A DNA stretch of 37,768 nt from a virus. Its lineage: Duplodnaviria > Heunggongvirae > Uroviricota > Caudoviricetes. A program made the position numbers and the translations under genes. The notes under the pieces are model-generated. The model ran no database searches. It saw nothing but the letters and a program-made list of their open reading frames with translations, and was not told the origin of the DNA. This document shows positions 2,047-31,684 of this stretch, one piece after another. How positions within the stretch are numbered: the first letter of the stretch is position 1; each line of letters starts with the position of its first letter. The stretch is taken from IMG/VR virus record IMGVR_UViG_2526164599_000010; one strand, given 5' to 3'.

Positions 2047-2839
<793 letters not shown>

Positions 2840-8129: not shown

Positions 8130-8719
8130 TGCATCGGCCCCGTGGTTCCGCCGCTGTCGCCGCGGTGGATATGCTTATCCGTCGATTTGCCATTGATGAT
8201 GGCATCCGGGGCAGTAATATTGCTGTCGAACTGGCTTTTACCTTTAACGCCCAGACCTTTCTGGATCTCAACGTCGCCGGTAAACGTGGTTCTGGGTGTA
8301 TCAACGGTCATGCTTTCATCAGCGTAAATCTCAACCGTTTTACAGGTAATGATGCAGCGCCCGTCCTTTGTCAGCCTGATACGATGCCCCTCGTGGTGGT
8401 AAATGCCTGCATCACCCGGTTCAAGATTTGTCGGGCGGTAGCGGCGGTCTTCCACCACAACGGCAATCCCCTGATCACGTTGTGCACCCACACAGGCAAT
8501 CAGCGCCTCTGCGCCCGGCAGAGGAACGCTGAAATGCCCGTAATTTTGCAGGCGCTCCACTTCATCAGATTCCTCATCATCCAGCAGACCGACCTGCAGG
8601 TTCTGAACTTTTCGCCCGTCGTTAATCACGTTAACAACGGCACGCGCAAGCATCAGACGCACACGACGCATCAGCGGTGTCAGCAGGCGGTTCATGGCGG
8701 AATCATTTACTCTTTCCAC
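8126..8719 (-). CDS. Q: Baseplate hub/spike-like protein (Mu Q position)
   Basis: 197-aa ORF; ATGA-type overlap with V; conserved Mu order. Confidence 0.7.
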   Translation of the reverse strand: MERVNDSAMNRLLTPLMRRVRLMLARAVVNVINDGRKVQNLQVGLLDDEESDEVERLQNYGHFSVPLPGAEALIACVGAQRDQGIAVVVEDRRYRPTNLEPGDAGIYHHEGHRIRLTKDGRCIITCKTVEIYADESMTVDTPRTTFTGDVEIQKGLGVKGKSQFDSNITAPDAIINGKSTDKHIHRGDSGGTTGPMQ

Positions 8720-26825: not shown

Positions 26826-27327
26826 CCGCCCCCCTGATATTCCAGATTGCCATTTCCACTTCGCGACGGTTCATCAGTCCTTTCCATTTATGGCCTGCGG
26901 CAAACACCCAGCGGGCCATCTGGTCACGCGCTCCGGCGTAATCACCGGCATTGAGTTTTTTCAGCAGCGTTGATTTACTGAATGCGGTAACACCGGTGTT
27001 GAAAATAAATGTTGCCAGCGCCGTTTTCTGATATGGCGTCAGCGGCACCCTGACAAGACGATCGATTGCCGCATAAACCGGTTTTAAATCACTGTCGAGG
27101 AGAGCCATACACTCCGCATGGCTGTAACGGCGCATTTCGATATCCGGCCCGGTATGTCCCACACAGACCGTAAGCACACCGGCAATATCGCGGTAAGGCA
27201 TATAAGCGATATTTTCCAGATGGATCAGAGACTGACGGGTCATTTCCTGATAACCACCCACACCACCACCGGCAATCGTTGCCGCCAGCAGTGCGGCTTT
27301 CAGTTTTTTTGGTATCCCCGCCATCAT
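26809..27327 (-). CDS. lys: Endolysin with N-terminal signal-anchor-release (SAR) type segment (Mu lys)
   Basis: 172-aa ORF; N-terminal Gly/Ala-rich weakly hydrophobic segment (LKAALLAATIAGGGVGG) followed by a lysozyme-like domain; first late gene after C. Confidence 0.85.
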   Translation of the reverse strand: MMAGIPKKLKAALLAATIAGGGVGGYQEMTRQSLIHLENIAYMPYRDIAGVLTVCVGHTGPDIEMRRYSHAECMALLDSDLKPVYAAIDRLVRVPLTPYQKTALATFIFNTGVTAFSKSTLLKKLNAGDYAGARDQMARWVFAAGHKWKGLMNRREVEMAIWNIRGADDLRQ

Positions 27328-27398
27328 GCTTCCCTGAAAAAATGCTCTGATGGCAGTCTAAAAAATCAGGTGACAGGTGCGGGATTATGGTGACAGGA
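27328..27398 (-). promoter_or_regulatory. Candidate C-activated late promoter Plys region
   Basis: Non-coding interval between the C terminator and the lys start; contains AGGTGCGGGA (27375..27384), identical to the 10-mer upstream of gene I. Confidence 0.55.
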
Positions 27399-27423
27399 AA
27401 TAACCGGCAGGATGCCGGTTATT
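27399..27423 (-). terminator. Intrinsic terminator of the middle transcript, overlapping the C stop codon
   Basis: Minus strand reads TAA-CCGGCA-TCC-TGCCGG-TTATTTCCT; perfect palindrome AATAACCGGCAGGATGCCGGTTATT. Confidence 0.7.
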
Positions 27424-27841
27424 TTGGGCTTTCAGGTGAGAACAGATCAGGCTGATGACGCCGTGTATGCAGCTTTCTCTGGCGGGCAATAATCTGGTAG
27501 ATCTGCGGCTGGGACAGGCGGTACTGGCGACGCAGTTCTTCCATGTTACGACCATTGAACTGGCAGTAAAGCAAATCGTCGCGTAACGCGGTCAGGATAG
27601 TATCGCCACAGGGGATATAAAACTGCCGCCCGCCCAGAAAACAGGACAGGGCAACGGCCTGTTTACGGGCAAGCTCACGGGGATTGCTGACGTTCTGGCG
27701 TTTCAGTTCGTTTTCCAGAACATCAATCAGATCAACCACCGAACGGGGCCAGCGTGATTCCAGTTCCGGGGCCGGGATGTTATCAATATGTCCGATTAAC
27801 TGGCGAATTGCCGGATCGTGTTCAAATAAATCATGCTGCAT
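27419..27841 (-). CDS. C: Late-gene transcription activator C
   Basis: 140-aa ORF, last gene of the ~1.2-kb middle operon; C-terminal HTH-like region; paralogous in layout to Mor (both ..FNGRN..EL..Y..). Confidence 0.85.
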   Translation of the reverse strand: MQHDLFEHDPAIRQLIGHIDNIPAPELESRWPRSVVDLIDVLENELKRQNVSNPRELARKQAVALSCFLGGRQFYIPCGDTILTALRDDLLYCQFNGRNMEELRRQYRLSQPQIYQIIARQRKLHTRRHQPDLFSPESPK

Positions 27842-27854
27842 ATTTTCCCCCGGT

Positions 27855-27974
27855 TAACAGACAGAAAGATACACCACGGCACTGATGGTTATCAGAACCA
27901 CAAGGGCAATCACTTTTATCGCATTAATCAGCGTGGACGGCCCGAAACATTCATCACTGAATTTTCTGTACATG
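27855..27974 (-). CDS. Small hydrophobic peptide (39 aa) in the middle operon
   Basis: ATG..TAA ORF MYRKFSDECFGPSTLINAIKVIALVVLITISAVVYLSVC, too short for the ORF track; fills the gap between the upstream membrane-protein gene and C. Confidence 0.4.
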
Positions 27975-27982
27975 GTGCCCCT

Positions 27983-28345
27983 TTACCCGAACAGACGAGC
28001 GCGAAAACGAAAGGAGAGCCAGAACGTCAGCAATCCGGCCAGCGCCCAGATGACATGCTCAGGACCCGTTTTCAGTTGAGACGTTGCCATCACGGCTAAT
28101 CCCAGCCCGGACAGACTCCCCAGCCAGGTCAGCGGCCAGACGAACCGGGCAAAATGTTCAGGCACCCGGCAGCTCATTATCAGCGCATCCAGACAATCAC
28201 CGGCAACACATAAAGCAACACTGAAAACCGAGGCACAGCAAAACATCAGCGCGCGCCAGCCACAAAACAGACTTATCCACAATAACAGCGCCAGTAACAC
28301 CACCGATAAAAAATCAGGCCACTGACGAGCAGAACGCTCAGACAT
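27983..28345 (-). CDS. Integral membrane protein of the middle operon; start chosen at the internal ATG 28345, which has a GGGAGA Shine-Dalgarno
   Basis: Multiple hydrophobic segments; 8-nt overlap with the upstream ORF. Confidence 0.6.
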   Translation of the reverse strand: MSERSARQWPDFLSVVLLALLLWISLFCGWRALMFCCASVFSVALCVAGDCLDALIMSCRVPEHFARFVWPLTWLGSLSGLGLAVMATSQLKTGPEHVIWALAGLLTFWLSFRFRARLFG

Positions 28346-28556
28346 AATGTTTCTCCCTGTAAAGCAGGCAATGATGAAGAATTTCCGGCATATCAACTGA
28401 CTGCCAGCCTTTCATGTAATAACTGCCGTGGGTGCCATCATGACCGGTATAGTCGCGGGGTGCAGGCCGTGGCCCACCGGCGACACGGTGCAAAACCTCC
28501 TGACGCAGCCGCTCACGTCTGCCAAGATGAAAGGATGCATTCCAGCCTTTACCCAT
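28338..28556 (-). CDS. First gene of the middle operon (Mu gp18 position)
   Basis: 72-aa ORF just downstream of the early terminator. Confidence 0.5.
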   Translation of the reverse strand: MGKGWNASFHLGRRERLRQEVLHRVAGGPRPAPRDYTGHDGTHGSYYMKGWQSVDMPEILHHCLLYREKHYV

Positions 28557-28603
28557 GATGATTTCCCCCGGTACGGTTATTCATCACAGGATATTGAGGA
28601 CGT

Positions 28604-28628
28604 AAAAAAAGCCGGATTAACCGGCTTT
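28604..28628 (-). terminator. Intrinsic terminator at the end of the early operon, just after mor
   Basis: Minus strand reads AAAGCCGG-TTAAT-CCGGCTTT followed by TTTTTTTACG; located about 6 nt after the mor stop. Confidence 0.75.
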
Positions 28629-28633
28629 ACTGT

Positions 28634-29023
28634 TTACAGAAGTGAGGGCTGGTACTGGCGGTATTTCAGCCGTCGCATCCGGCGAATGGCCTTGTAAACC
28701 GTATTGAAAGTGACACCATAACGGGTGGTCAGTTCGCTGACGTTGCGACCGTTAAAATCATTCCAGATACGCAAATCCCGAATCAGCGAGTCCAGAACCT
28801 GACCGCGTGGAATGTAGACCTGACCGCCGCCCAGATGCTTACAGATAGCCACAACAATCTCCAGTGAATGGGCAGGATCAACACCCAGCCGGGACAATTC
28901 CCCGCGTAGTAAATCGTTCAGCTCCGCCAGCAGTGCCGGAAAGCGTGACGTATCCTCTGCGGGATTGTCAAGATGTGCCAGGATGGTGTCATCCTGCAAA
29001 TCACCAAATAAATCTTCCGTCAT
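28634..29023 (-). CDS. mor: Middle operon regulator Mor
   Basis: 129-aa ORF, last gene of the early operon, ATGA overlap with gemA; same family as C. Confidence 0.85.
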   Translation of the reverse strand: MTEDLFGDLQDDTILAHLDNPAEDTSRFPALLAELNDLLRGELSRLGVDPAHSLEIVVAICKHLGGGQVYIPRGQVLDSLIRDLRIWNDFNGRNVSELTTRYGVTFNTVYKAIRRMRRLKYRQYQPSLL

Positions 29024-29571
29024 TGTGCCATCCTCCGTGTCTTTCTGGCATGGGCATAAGCCGCCGTCATGGCATCATAGCCGCGCAGTTCACGCCCGGA
29101 CGGACTGACTGGCAACGGAAGCCCGTGACGGGAAAAGGCTTCACGAATACAGCGGATATGCCACTGCTTGAGAGTTTCGAGAACAATCAACAGGGTGTCG
29201 CCATGACACCACGCCAGCGTGGAAACGCCCTGTCCGCCATTACGTTTCGCCGTCAGGCGCTGAACATATTTATCCAGCGCCACATCACCGCCATCGGTAA
29301 TAAAACCGTCTTCTGCCATCTGCTGCCAGACTTTGTATACCTTCTCGCGGGGCGTGACATGCCCCTTAAAGCGGCGACGTGGATGTTTATTCAGCTTCTT
29401 AAAGCCGCGTTCTTTCATGGCATCGAGCACCTGTTCCAGTTGCGTAACCGTCAGCTCGCGGCAACTGATTTTGCCCGTTTTCTGCATCAGAAAAGCGCGG
29501 TAAGTGTCGTCGTCGAGTTGTAGCTCCCGACGGGCGACATGGATTAATTTAATCAGGGATGTGCGATTCAT
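29020..29571 (-). CDS. gemA: GemA protein
   Basis: 183-aa ORF directly upstream of mor; preceded by AGGAGGT. Confidence 0.75.
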   Translation of the reverse strand: MNRTSLIKLIHVARRELQLDDDTYRAFLMQKTGKISCRELTVTQLEQVLDAMKERGFKKLNKHPRRRFKGHVTPREKVYKVWQQMAEDGFITDGGDVALDKYVQRLTAKRNGGQGVSTLAWCHGDTLLIVLETLKQWHIRCIREAFSRHGLPLPVSPSGRELRGYDAMTAAYAHARKTRRMAQ

Positions 29572-29845
29572 GATCGTACCTCCGGAAAGAGGCGGTGCTG
29601 CAACACCGCCTGAATTTACACATCAATCAGAGAGGATTTTATGGAAAATAATGTACAACCTTATGATGTTGCAGGTTATGCGATTGCATCAGCACTGGTG
29701 CGCCTTCTGGTGAAGAAGGCGATCATCACCGCAGAAGAGGGCCAGGCCATTTTCAGCTCTTCAGCAGAGATTTTAAAAGATGCGCCTGCAATAAGAACAA
29801 GCCGCCGCGAAAACATGCAACTGTCAAAGATCATGGAAGACATTA

Positions 29846-30148
29846 TCAGTTCGTTAGACCCAGATGCTGACGGATCTCAAAAGCCTCAAACACATGAGCG
29901 TCAGTAACAATATCCTGGTCTGATAACCCCAGCCTGCGGCGGATGTACTCCTCGCGGGCTGTTTCATTTTGCAGTGCCACTACTGTTTCCAGACGATTCA
30001 TTTCGCGGTTGATAATGTCACGGACTTCTCTGGCGGTGAGATTATGCTTAATACCATATTCAACGATAGCGCGAACACGTTCCAGCATCCCTTTTTCAGC
30101 CATGACGTTATCAATATTAAGGGGAGTAAATTTATCTTCATTGTTCAT
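29846..30148 (-). CDS. Early semi-essential region protein, function unknown
   Basis: 100-aa ORF, translationally coupled to the upstream gene. Confidence 0.6.
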   Translation of the reverse strand: MNNEDKFTPLNIDNVMAEKGMLERVRAIVEYGIKHNLTAREVRDIINREMNRLETVVALQNETAREEYIRRRLGLSDQDIVTDAHVFEAFEIRQHLGLTN

Positions 30149-30468
30149 TTTGCGGCCCTCAGAATAAATTCAGGATAAAATTTCAGACTCATTTGCCGTA
30201 ACACATCCAGTGCAGCAACGGCTGCTGATTTATCGTTGCCATCAGCAATAGCGCGGAGATTTTCAATAATCCAGTGAGGACTCAGTGACTCAGCAATAAT
30301 GCCAAACCGGTACGCCATGACCTCATCAATAGCTTTTTCATGAGACGTCTCATATACAAAATTCACAAATTCATGCACTTCTTTTTTCGGCAAACCACCG
30401 GCAATCAGCAGGGCGGCAAGCTCTTCTGATTTTGAAAATACACCATTATTCATATCACTCACCTTCAC
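30145..30468 (-). CDS. Early semi-essential region protein, function unknown
   Basis: 107-aa ORF. Confidence 0.6.
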   Translation of the reverse strand: MKVSDMNNGVFSKSEELAALLIAGGLPKKEVHEFVNFVYETSHEKAIDEVMAYRFGIIAESLSPHWIIENLRAIADGNDKSAAVAALDVLRQMSLKFYPEFILRAAK

Positions 30469-30637
30469 AATTCATGCACGCCGTGTCATCGCCCATATCG
30501 CAGTGGTTGCATTTCTGCCCGCCACAATGAGGGCACTCTTTCAGATATTCAGGGGATTCATTACCGCAGGTCGGGCATTCCTGTTTCACCGTGGTAAATT
30601 TCCCCAGCCACGAATACGATGTTTCACTGTTTTCCAT
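30455..30637 (-). CDS. Small zinc-ribbon protein (three CxxC pairs), function unknown
   Basis: 60-aa ORF with CPTC...CPHC...CNHC...CMNC. Confidence 0.6.
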   Translation of the reverse strand: MENSETSYSWLGKFTTVKQECPTCGNESPEYLKECPHCGGQKCNHCDMGDDTACMNCEGE

Positions 30638-31154
30638 TAGTTACCTCCGCCTGTTTTTGCGCCCGGATAAATTCGTCAGAAAGGATTTCAGTCATGCGGC
30701 CTTGCGCGGGTGTCATCCCCGTCATGACGTAAATCACATCACCAACACGGAACCACTGGAGCGGCCCGAATATTGTTGCGCTGAAATCCAGTCCCAGTGC
30801 GGGTAAAAGAGCGTCTGTGCGGGCGTAAGTGACCGGAATATTCTCCTGCCATATTTTCGCCAGCTCTCTTGCCTGCTCCCTGAGATGAGCAGGTATCCGC
30901 GAAGTTCTGGGCCTGCAACTGTTACCTGATGCGGGCCGTTGTACGGTCCACAGCTCCCGCGAGAAGGGGCGCTCATTCCCCGGAAAGTTCACACCATGAA
31001 AATGACGCCCACCAATACCGGTGCTGAATACTGACCGGCAACCACAGCCCAGAACCTTATCAAGATGGCGGGCTTCTTCGCGTAGTTTCAGGCAGTCCGC
31101 CATAAACTGGTCCCATGCCAGCAGTGCTGCGGGATTTGACGTTTTAAAAAACAT
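30624..31154 (-). CDS. Early region protein, function unknown; start set at the internal ATG 31154, abutting the upstream stop
   Basis: Track ORF 30624..31193 begins inside the upstream gene; MFFKTSNPAALLAWDQF... from 31154. Confidence 0.55.
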   Translation of the reverse strand: MFFKTSNPAALLAWDQFMADCLKLREEARHLDKVLGCGCRSVFSTGIGGRHFHGVNFPGNERPFSRELWTVQRPASGNSCRPRTSRIPAHLREQARELAKIWQENIPVTYARTDALLPALGLDFSATIFGPLQWFRVGDVIYVMTGMTPAQGRMTEILSDEFIRAQKQAEVTNGKQ

Positions 31155-31684
31155 CACGCCACCTCCTGCACCGTTGCGGGAACCGGAGAACAATCAAGAA
31201 TGAGATAACGCAGTACATGGTCGGTGATATTCCAGGCGCTTGAACTGCAAATAAAACGCCCCAGCCGGATATCGATATAAGCCATCACAAAACGGGGCAT
31301 TCCCTGTTCGCACATTCTGTTATCCACCTCAGCAACAATGTGGACTGACTCACAGGTCAGCACGCCCGTCGCAAACTCTTTTGCCAGTGCGGGGATGGTA
31401 TTACCTTCCACCCAGGGTAATGAGCGACGCCAGTTGCACCACACCGCATCATCAACAGCAGGCTGTTCAGTTGCGCTTCGTCTTACAGGCGGCGTCGGAC
31501 GCGGGCGCGGAACGTCATAAAATCCGTTGCATTCGGTGAGAACGCCGGCATCAACCGCATCACGCAGGAAATACACCATTGATGAGGAAGGCATCTTCAT
31601 TTTTTCAGCCAGAACTCCGCAGGTCAGGCGTCCGTAAGCCCGTAATAATGTGCTGACACCATTCAGAATTTTTGCATCAACCAT
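31154..31684 (-). CDS. Early region protein, function unknown
   Basis: 176-aa ORF preceded by GAGG; first gene after the gam-proximal intergenic gap. Confidence 0.6.
   Translation of the reverse strand: MVDAKILNGVSTLLRAYGRLTCGVLAEKMKMPSSSMVYFLRDAVDAGVLTECNGFYDVPRPRPTPPVRRSATEQPAVDDAVWCNWRRSLPWVEGNTIPALAKEFATGVLTCESVHIVAEVDNRMCEQGMPRFVMAYIDIRLGRFICSSSAWNITDHVLRYLILDCSPVPATVQEVA

Follow-up and report, generated by a model that had tools for sequence, protein, structure and literature searches.

We analyzed the junction between genes gp14 and gemA in the early region of IMG/VR virus record IMGVR_UViG_2526164599_000010, a stretch of 37,768 nt (hereafter the window) that, judged by its identities, is a Mu-like phage: positions 29000..30200 share 99.8% identity with Shigella phage SfMu and the Yersinia phages vB_YpM_5/6, and 96.8% with phage Mu. 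The comparative evidence clearly favours gp15, a small gene lying in this junction antisense to the early operon, as a real protein-coding gene over the sense-strand frame Mu_54, with which it competes in the public annotations of Mu. Rather than empty regulatory DNA, the junction is quite probably a conserved one that holds two separate things, the gp15 gene and an RNA hairpin preceding gemA. Gene gp15 was already catalogued, hence the locus is mostly known and not new; what is added here is the resolution of an annotation conflict, the recognition of a wider syntenic family and the covariation of the hairpin in the gemA leader, with no new kind of system.

A catalogued antisense gene in the gap upstream of gemA

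The early operon of the window is on the − strand, and gemA is separated from the upstream gp14 homologue by a gap of 274 bp (29572..29845), with the coordinates given in an earlier reading of this DNA (the original prediction). That reading also held that the gap has no open reading frame (ORF) on the sense strand, a statement contradicted by the 55-aa frame of Mu_54. The features of the junction are as follows:

29641..29907 (+), gp15, homologue of Mup15 and SfMu_16, 88 aa with an ATG start, antisense to the early operon and divergent from gemA
29630..29636 (+), Shine-Dalgarno (SD) sequence of gp15, GAGAGGA, 4 nt ahead of the ATG
29676..29843 (−), Mu_54 (AAF01092.2, from AF083977.1), a 55-aa ORF with an ATG start 2 nt past the gp14 stop codon, judged not to be a conserved gene
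29846..30148 (−), homologue of Mu gp14, 100 aa, phrog_6075, the upstream early gene, convergent with gp15 and overlapping its 3′ end with its last 62 nt
29020..29571 (−), gemA (gp16), first gene of the gemA-mor unit, Pfam GemA E = 2.5e-30, annotated in Mu and SfMu
29579..29583 (−), SD of gemA, GGAGG, 7 nt ahead of the ATG at 29571, annotated as the ribosome-binding site (RBS) of Mu_16 in AF083977
28634..29023 (−), mor, in the early operon

The antisense ORF of 88 aa and its strong SD are present as originally described, except that the spacing to the ATG is 4 nt and not 5, and the 62-bp overlap with the 3′ end of the upstream gene corresponds to 29846..29907. The ORF had been called unannotated, which is not the case: it is Mup15/gp15 (NP_050619.1) in the RefSeq record of Mu, NC_000929, and SfMu_16 in the SfMu record KP010268; the old left-end record M64097 contains an ‘F-134’ that encloses it, and PGAP calls the homologue in E. 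coli prophages as a hypothetical protein. The product from the window matches SfMu_16 at 100% and Mu gp15 at 95.5% identity, and these three genes have in common the slot between gp14 and gemA, the orientation, the gp14 overlap and the SD, with no substantive difference. It also matches phrog_8747, a function-unknown family, over residues 1–88 of 88 (E = 1.3e-60). Two public annotations of Mu are therefore in conflict at this site, the antisense gp15 being present in RefSeq and the sense ORF Mu_54 in the updated GenBank record AF083977.1.

Comparative evidence favours gp15 as the coding frame

The gp15 frame is kept across diverged Mu-like prophages at 40–50% protein identity. A diverged clade of E. 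coli prophages (L008–L010) has an 88-aa ORF at the equal place and orientation, with 50% protein and 65% DNA identity and no indel with respect to the gp15 gene of the window across 267 nt; the leader just upstream has a 2-nt indel, with the SD retained. A second lineage of homologues, 40% identical to gp15, is found at the equal site, again with no indels, and exhaustive searching with HMMER brought in P0008 (86 aa) and P0007, both of them antisense in their contigs between GemA and a gene for 104 aa whose 3′ end they overlap. Over at least the first 66 codons, the three lineages window/Mu, L008–L010 and L012–L015 show no indels at 60–65% nucleotide identity. Likewise, a purine-rich SD (AGAGGA, GAAGG, AAAGGA, AAGGAG or GGAGA) is found 5–9 nt ahead of the antisense ATG in every lineage, and is itself retained in a spacer that diverges and bears indels.

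Selection was measured by NG86 on the part of gp15 outside the gp14 overlap, using the three lineages, in which around 40% of the nucleotides differ. The proportions of synonymous and nonsynonymous differences in the gp15 frame were 0.61–0.70 (pS) and 0.29–0.33 (pN), with a ratio of nonsynonymous to synonymous rates (dN/dS) of 0.19–0.34 that indicates purifying selection; column shuffles equalled the observed signal in at most 1% of cases (p 0–0.01). In a comparison of the six frames, the + frame of gp15 had the lowest dN/dS (0.27–0.31), followed by the Mu_54 frame (0.40–0.50), and the remaining frames ranged from about 0.8 to 2.1. The codon usage of gp15 is gene-like, with a log-likelihood of 0.32 per codon versus 0.27 ± 0.16 for the true genes of the phage; other frames over the region are negative, and Mu_54 reaches −0.23 over the region and 0.05 over its own ORF. 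As worked out from the coordinates, the Mu_54 frame has its third codon positions in common with gp15, so that codon-position periodicity was dropped as a discriminator and we relied on dN/dS, stop codons, ORF boundaries and codon usage.

Of the two alternatives that the original prediction had offered, an unannotated antisense gene or a regulatory RNA or structure controlling gemA-mor expression, these comparisons bear out the gene. The ORF is no regulatory RNA; it is its amino-acid sequence that is conserved, and a search with Rfam covariance models gave two chance-level hits only, far below the gathering scores.

A reading in which both strands are coding, with gp15 and Mu_54 as a fully overlapping antiparallel pair, is improbable. 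It would agree with the fact that neither frame is interrupted in the Mu/SfMu and L008–L010 clades and that each was annotated by a different group, and functional antiparallel overlapping genes have been documented in the transposable phage Fc02 (PMC9936078). However, an internal stop interrupts the Mu_54 frame in L012/L014, a lineage with an intact gp15, and D108-type and other members of the gp15 family (see below) lack any equivalent of that frame; additionally, the codon usage of the frame is poor and it carries no signal past the echo of the constraint on gp15. Such an echo is to be expected in the low dN/dS of the Mu_54 frame because of the third codon positions that it has in common with gp15.

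More improbable still is the case in which Mu_54, translated off the early transcript by coupling to gp14, is the real gene and the antisense ORF a chance frame. Mu_54 is the ORF annotated in the current AF083977.1, its ATG 2 nt past the gp14 stop (TGAtaATG) fits a packed operon, its dN/dS is below 1, and a 61-aa ORF exists in its frame in L008–L010. Nevertheless, that dN/dS is higher than in the + frame and is the one expected from the echo; the start and stop of the frame are not conserved, being shifted in L008–L010, and its codon usage is unlike that of phage genes, with no SD to speak of and no match among PHROG or Pfam families. Furthermore, the best-conserved codons of gp15 (N-terminal, QPYDVAGY, with two silent changes) lie partly past the end of Mu_54, and the 46 family hits that we found in 80 GemA loci are all antisense. 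On the grounds of the internal stop in L012/L014, the shifted boundaries, the poor codon usage and the higher dN/dS, Mu_54 was rejected as a conserved gene. The least credible account, in which the region codes for no protein and consists of control DNA only, namely a semi-early promoter and the hairpin, and any leftward transcript is an antisense RNA against early read-through, can point to the promoter annotated here in Mu, to the failure to find one for gp15 and to a family without known function, but it is at odds with the amino-acid conservation across genera, with the lack of indels within the ORF at 60–65% nucleotide identity and with the dN/dS and gene-like codon usage of gp15.

Certain observations weigh against coding by gp15 and have to be balanced with the above. 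The gene was left out of the current AF083977.1 by its curators, who took up Mu_54 instead. Five substitutions separate Mu from the window within the ORF; all four gp15 codons that are changed alter the amino acid, by conservative replacements, and in the Mu_54 frame two of the five leave the amino acid unchanged, in the + frame none does. With so few substitutions, this observation cannot outweigh the other coding evidence. Lastly, purifying selection is not seen in the gp15 frame over the tail of the gene: over the gp14 overlap, the last ~60 nt of gp15, dN/dS is 0.41 in the gp14 frame versus about 1.3 in the gp15 frame, and therefore gp14 dictates the sequence of this tail. Taken together, the comparisons settle the conflict between the two annotations in favour of gp15, which should be restored in the annotation of Mu.

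gp15 belongs to a family with a fixed arrangement relative to gemA

The survey covered 80 loci taken from IMG/VR, with GemA proteins that are 41–100% identical. Many of them have, 64–73 nt upstream of the gemA ATG, an opposite-strand ATG with a good SD, and the ORFs in that slot code for 79–119 aa with a common two-helix core. A hidden Markov model (HMM) of the gp15 family matched in 29 of the 80 loci. In 17 others the slot is filled by a second family, DUF2513-like, of 134–138 aa (MKIDYDE...), and the members of both families (29 + 17) are without exception antisense to gemA.

The gap of phage D108 consists of DNA unrelated to Mu, and yet an unannotated 119-aa antisense ORF starts at the equal position. 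BLASTP of gp15 against this ORF was not significant, so that the relationship rests on profiles: in a one-to-one test the gp15-family profile matched the D108 ORF with E = 1.5e-4, and phrog_32893 links gp15, P0006, P0008 and the D108 ORF. In the D108 sequence (L004) the ORF is at 2142..2501 (+) and corresponds to phrog_38610; it is unannotated in GQ357916/NC_013594, leaving a 376-bp ‘gap’, and is annotated only in LR595867 (Mu_3F6).

A large protein database yielded members from Klebsiella, Citrobacter and Salmonella, all named hypothetical; those from Klebsiella and Salmonella that were looked up have the synteny and the hairpin seen in the window. Two scans of genome contigs gave no confirmed relatives. 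The D108 ORF and the relatives of 79–112 aa from Klebsiella, Citrobacter and Salmonella have in common with gp15 the slot, the orientation, the distance to gemA and the hairpin, as well as the core motif [FY]D[VI]A[AG][FY]..[AG].L...L[VI].KG[VI]I. They differ in that they are 9–22% identical to gp15, some have N-terminal extensions, and the third helix and tail are different (...LF.KLW..RP). Amino-acid conservation in the family reaches down to ~15–20% identity across genera, with the start, the SD and the length class kept. As delimited by these profiles and by synteny, the gp15 family spans phrog_8747, the D108 ORF and the relatives from Klebsiella, Citrobacter and Salmonella, and is kept antisense by many enterobacterial Mu-like (pro)phages, with its ATG 64–73 nt from that of gemA. 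Gene gp15 is thus no orphan, and the fixed divergent arrangement of its family with gemA suggests a functional connection with the gem operon, itself poorly understood, and with how Mor, the switch to middle transcription, is supplied.

The DUF2513-like genes (L037, L057, L075, L097 and 13 others) occupy the slot of gp15 in the same orientation, but are longer. They match Pfam DUF2513 (PF10711), which we take to be a family of the winged-helix type, with E = 6.6e-5, below the Pfam cut-off; neither gp15 nor its relatives matched any Pfam family. In a profile comparison of the two families, hhalign gave a 7% probability over a motif of only 16 columns, and homology between them is not claimed. 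The DUF2513-like loci of the 30-nt-gap type have, in place of the GC hairpin, an AT-rich inverted repeat, TCTCAT-N8-ATGAGA, with the SD of the gene in its loop.

A covarying hairpin precedes gemA

The second element of the junction and the features around it are the following:

29591..29610 (−), GC hairpin with a 7-bp stem, GGCGGTG/CACCGCC, and a 6-nt loop, 19 nt ahead of the gemA ATG and 7 nt ahead of its SD
29584..29590 (−), pyrimidine/U-rich stretch UCUUUCC (gemA-sense), between the hairpin and the gemA SD
29587..29652 (−), stretch homologous to the ‘semi-early promoter’ of Mu (8151..8217), transferred by alignment from the annotation of AF083977.1, including the hairpin
28608..28628 (−), strong terminator-like hairpin AAAGCCGG-TTAAT-CCGGCTTT followed by TTTTT, just past mor

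The original prediction was right about the existence of a hairpin upstream of the gemA RBS and placed it at 29582..29601, 9 nt to the left of its actual position. The hairpin, GGCGGTG-CTGCAA-CACCGCC, occurs once in the window, for a chance expectation of 0.01 matches, and either strand folds with −15 to −16 kcal/mol (z = −3.8 to −4.2). In all lineages that have it, it lies 15–22 nt ahead of the gemA ATG; next come a pyrimidine/U-rich stretch and the SD GGAGG, which is near-invariant across lineages.

Because MAFFT gapped the 3′ arm, the hairpin and its flanks were re-aligned as fixed-length 24-mers. The covariation that the original prediction had named as a check is present: in 13 distinct variants from different lineages the stem is paired throughout (91/91 cells), and three of the seven pairs have changed on both sides (G-C to A-U; U-A to C-G twice; G-C to U-A), with a freely variable loop. 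None of 500 shuffles reached the observed values, nor did any slid register. These figures are to be read with the limits, which count against the element, that the variants were picked because they fold and that several of the lineages are related, so that the covariation amounts to about three independent events.

The hairpin is kept in phages without gp15 (YpM_3, PhiR68_1, L048, L051 and L072) and also beside a DUF2513-like gene in L095–L100, and hence we assign it to gemA and not to gp15. By its pattern of substitution it is a separately conserved structural element, and a role in gemA-mor expression is plausible because of its compensatory changes and its persistence without gp15. Across Mu-like prophages of E. 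coli, Shigella, Salmonella, Klebsiella and Citrobacter, a covarying hairpin keeps a constant distance to the start of gemA.

Two other cases stand apart from these. L105, with no antisense gene, has an unrelated 11-bp hairpin (AGAGCGTTACG...CGTGACGCTTT) 20 nt ahead of the gemA ATG. In L064 the gemA-sense strand carries CTGCAA in the loop, where Mu-type phages have its reverse complement, TTGCAG; the entire palindromic element looks as though it had been turned around.

Possible roles of the hairpin in gemA-mor expression

With 7–9 bp, six G-C pairs and −15 kcal/mol, the stem is of the GC-rich kind found in intrinsic terminators. A rightward transcript would carry, past the hairpin, the U-rich stretch and immediately after it the gemA RBS. 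The 10 nt past the stem (gemA-sense) contain 3–7 T in 16 lineages, in runs of up to six, and U-runs of five to six are found past the stem in the relatives L092, L058, L012, L101 and L111. The likeness to intrinsic terminators and to intercistronic stabiliser hairpins lies in the GC-rich stem of 7–10 bp, the short loop and the U-rich stretch on the gemA-sense strand; the difference from an intrinsic terminator is that the hairpin of the window is inside an operon, and at most partial termination is to be expected there since the downstream gene mor is needed. The reading that we tentatively place first, short of calling it probable, is that the hairpin acts as a leaky intrinsic terminator or as a 3′-end stabiliser that would separate the upstream early genes from gemA-mor and so set the dose of Mor. 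The hairpin at 28608..28628 (−) is another matter; its counterpart in Mu and D108 is annotated as a terminator within the middle-promoter region, and it is the true early terminator, separate from and much stronger than the one preceding gemA.

Termination at the gemA hairpin is called into question by the U-tract of the window and Mu themselves, with a run of only three (UCUUUCC / CCCUUUCC). An intrinsic terminator should have at least five U in the 8 nt directly past the stem; the window has four in UCUUUCCG, with a run of three, and the terminator scan made no call there; TransTermHP did not call a terminator at the hairpin in Mu either. The next best reading, which we consider rather unlikely, is that the hairpin would be a stabiliser in the 5′ leader of a semi-early gem transcript. 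The label ‘semi-early promoter’ rests on the annotation of AF083977.1, which cites PMID 9454718. Counting against promoters at this place, no sigma-70 promoter (−35/−10 boxes with 16–18 nt spacing) was found for gp15 or gemA on either strand of 29300..30200, nor near the site in a scan of 27300..31300, and a relaxed promoter scan across 13 lineages gave no conserved candidate.

A broader proposal, which at present has little probability, joins the divergent small gene (gp15 family or DUF2513-like), the fixed-position hairpin and gemA-mor in one conserved control module. Leftward transcription would collide with read-through from Pe and, with the leaky hairpin, would gate the early transcription that reaches mor, protecting lysogens from accidental Mor and timing the switch from early to middle transcription; the protein may additionally modulate gem functions or a host target.

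Of about the same low probability, if not slightly lower, is that the inverted repeat is a DNA operator between the divergent genes gp15 and gemA, bound by a dimeric regulator (possibly gp15 itself) and controlling the semi-early promoter. The arrangement would suit it: the gene for a small helical protein diverges from the operon, and a perfect 7-bp repeat with a constant 6-bp spacing lies in the middle of a spacer of ~70 bp. The DUF2513-like family that can fill the slot, presumably of winged-helix type and matched below the cut-off, and the different inverted repeat TCTCAT-N8-ATGAGA in part of its lineages also speak for an operator. Conversely, the hairpin is unchanged where gp15 is lost or sense-strand genes are present (the five phages without gp15 named above), and accompanies a DUF2513-like gene in L095–L100; the changes in the stem are compensatory for pairing, and L105 has its unrelated hairpin at the equal distance from the ATG. 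Moreover, no DNA-binding domain was detected in gp15 with Pfam or fold searches.

Predicted structure and expression of gp15

An AlphaFold model (AF2, 18 sequences) of gp15 had a predicted local distance difference test (pLDDT) of 70 and a predicted template modelling score (pTM) of 0.54, with helices at residues 6–25, 31–46 and 61–72 and a disordered tail at 77–88. The product is accordingly predicted to be a soluble three-helix protein of ~10 kDa whose last ~20 residues form a disordered tail; a tail that free-rides on gp14 in the overlap fits with this predicted disorder.

As gp15 points against the Pe early operon, it cannot be made from the early transcript and needs its own leftward promoter; its translation would start from its own strong SD. 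The expression of gem is reported to be constitutive in lysogens (Paolozzi and Ghelardini, 1992, as cited in PMC3820752). By analogy, gp15 may be an accessory protein expressed independently of Pe, for instance in the lysogen like the gem operon, that acts through protein-protein contact; we hold this as a working idea, somewhat less probable than its opposite. To be set against it, Pfam, NCBIfam, PADLOC, PHROG categories and fold searches indicated no function for gp15. Literature searches, including a term search in the SfMu paper, found nothing on gp15 and no reports of its expression.

A second analogy for expression independent of Pe is with olg1/olg2, opposite-strand lysogeny genes of the transposable Pseudomonas phage Fc02 for which expression and exclusion activity have been shown (PMC9936078). 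Like gp15, they are small, antisense to the early lytic operon of a Mu-like phage and overlap an early gene; an own promoter is a feature of the Fc02 genes. Unlike gp15, they lie beside the repressor and not beside gemA, and there is no sequence relationship between them.

Natural deletions and variants of the junction

The existence of natural deletions indicates that gp15 is dispensable. In YpM_3/23 and L051, a deletion of ~220 bp removes the gp15 SD and the first ~66 codons, leaving the hairpin and the gemA leader intact. In Yersinia phage vB_YpM_3 (L007, 1372..1424), and also in L051, two short motifs that resemble each other, ACATCAATCAG / ACATTATCAG, flank the deletion junction, and a new stop ends the gp14 homologue. 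A larger deletion is found in L048 (UViG_2875703104_000002), where the first five codons of gp15 (MENNV) are fused to the match of window positions ~30503..30640 (+); this implies, from the alignment, a deletion of ~0.85 kb taking gp15, gp14 and the next gene.

Other variants, some of which also speak for dispensability, affect the integrity of the gene. The 3′ end of the gp15-family gene for P0007 is replaced in L016 (3001..4444) by the insertion of an IS256-type transposase (Pfam Transposase_mut), which accounts for the aberrant C-terminus of P0007, and P0004, from one E. coli genome, is a frameshifted gp15 variant of 76 aa. In STEC388 (L008, 751..1232), it is gemA that is a frameshifted pseudogene, beside an intact gp15 homologue.

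Additional opposite-strand frames were seen near gemA. The window has a 219-aa ORF (28864..29523, +) that lies antisense to gemA and to the first part of mor and corresponds to ‘D-196’ of M64097; it looks like another open antisense frame rather than a gene. L012/L013 contain, at 2052..2387 (+), a second opposite-strand gene, for a product of 111 aa with no Pfam match, between gemA and the mor-proximal genes.

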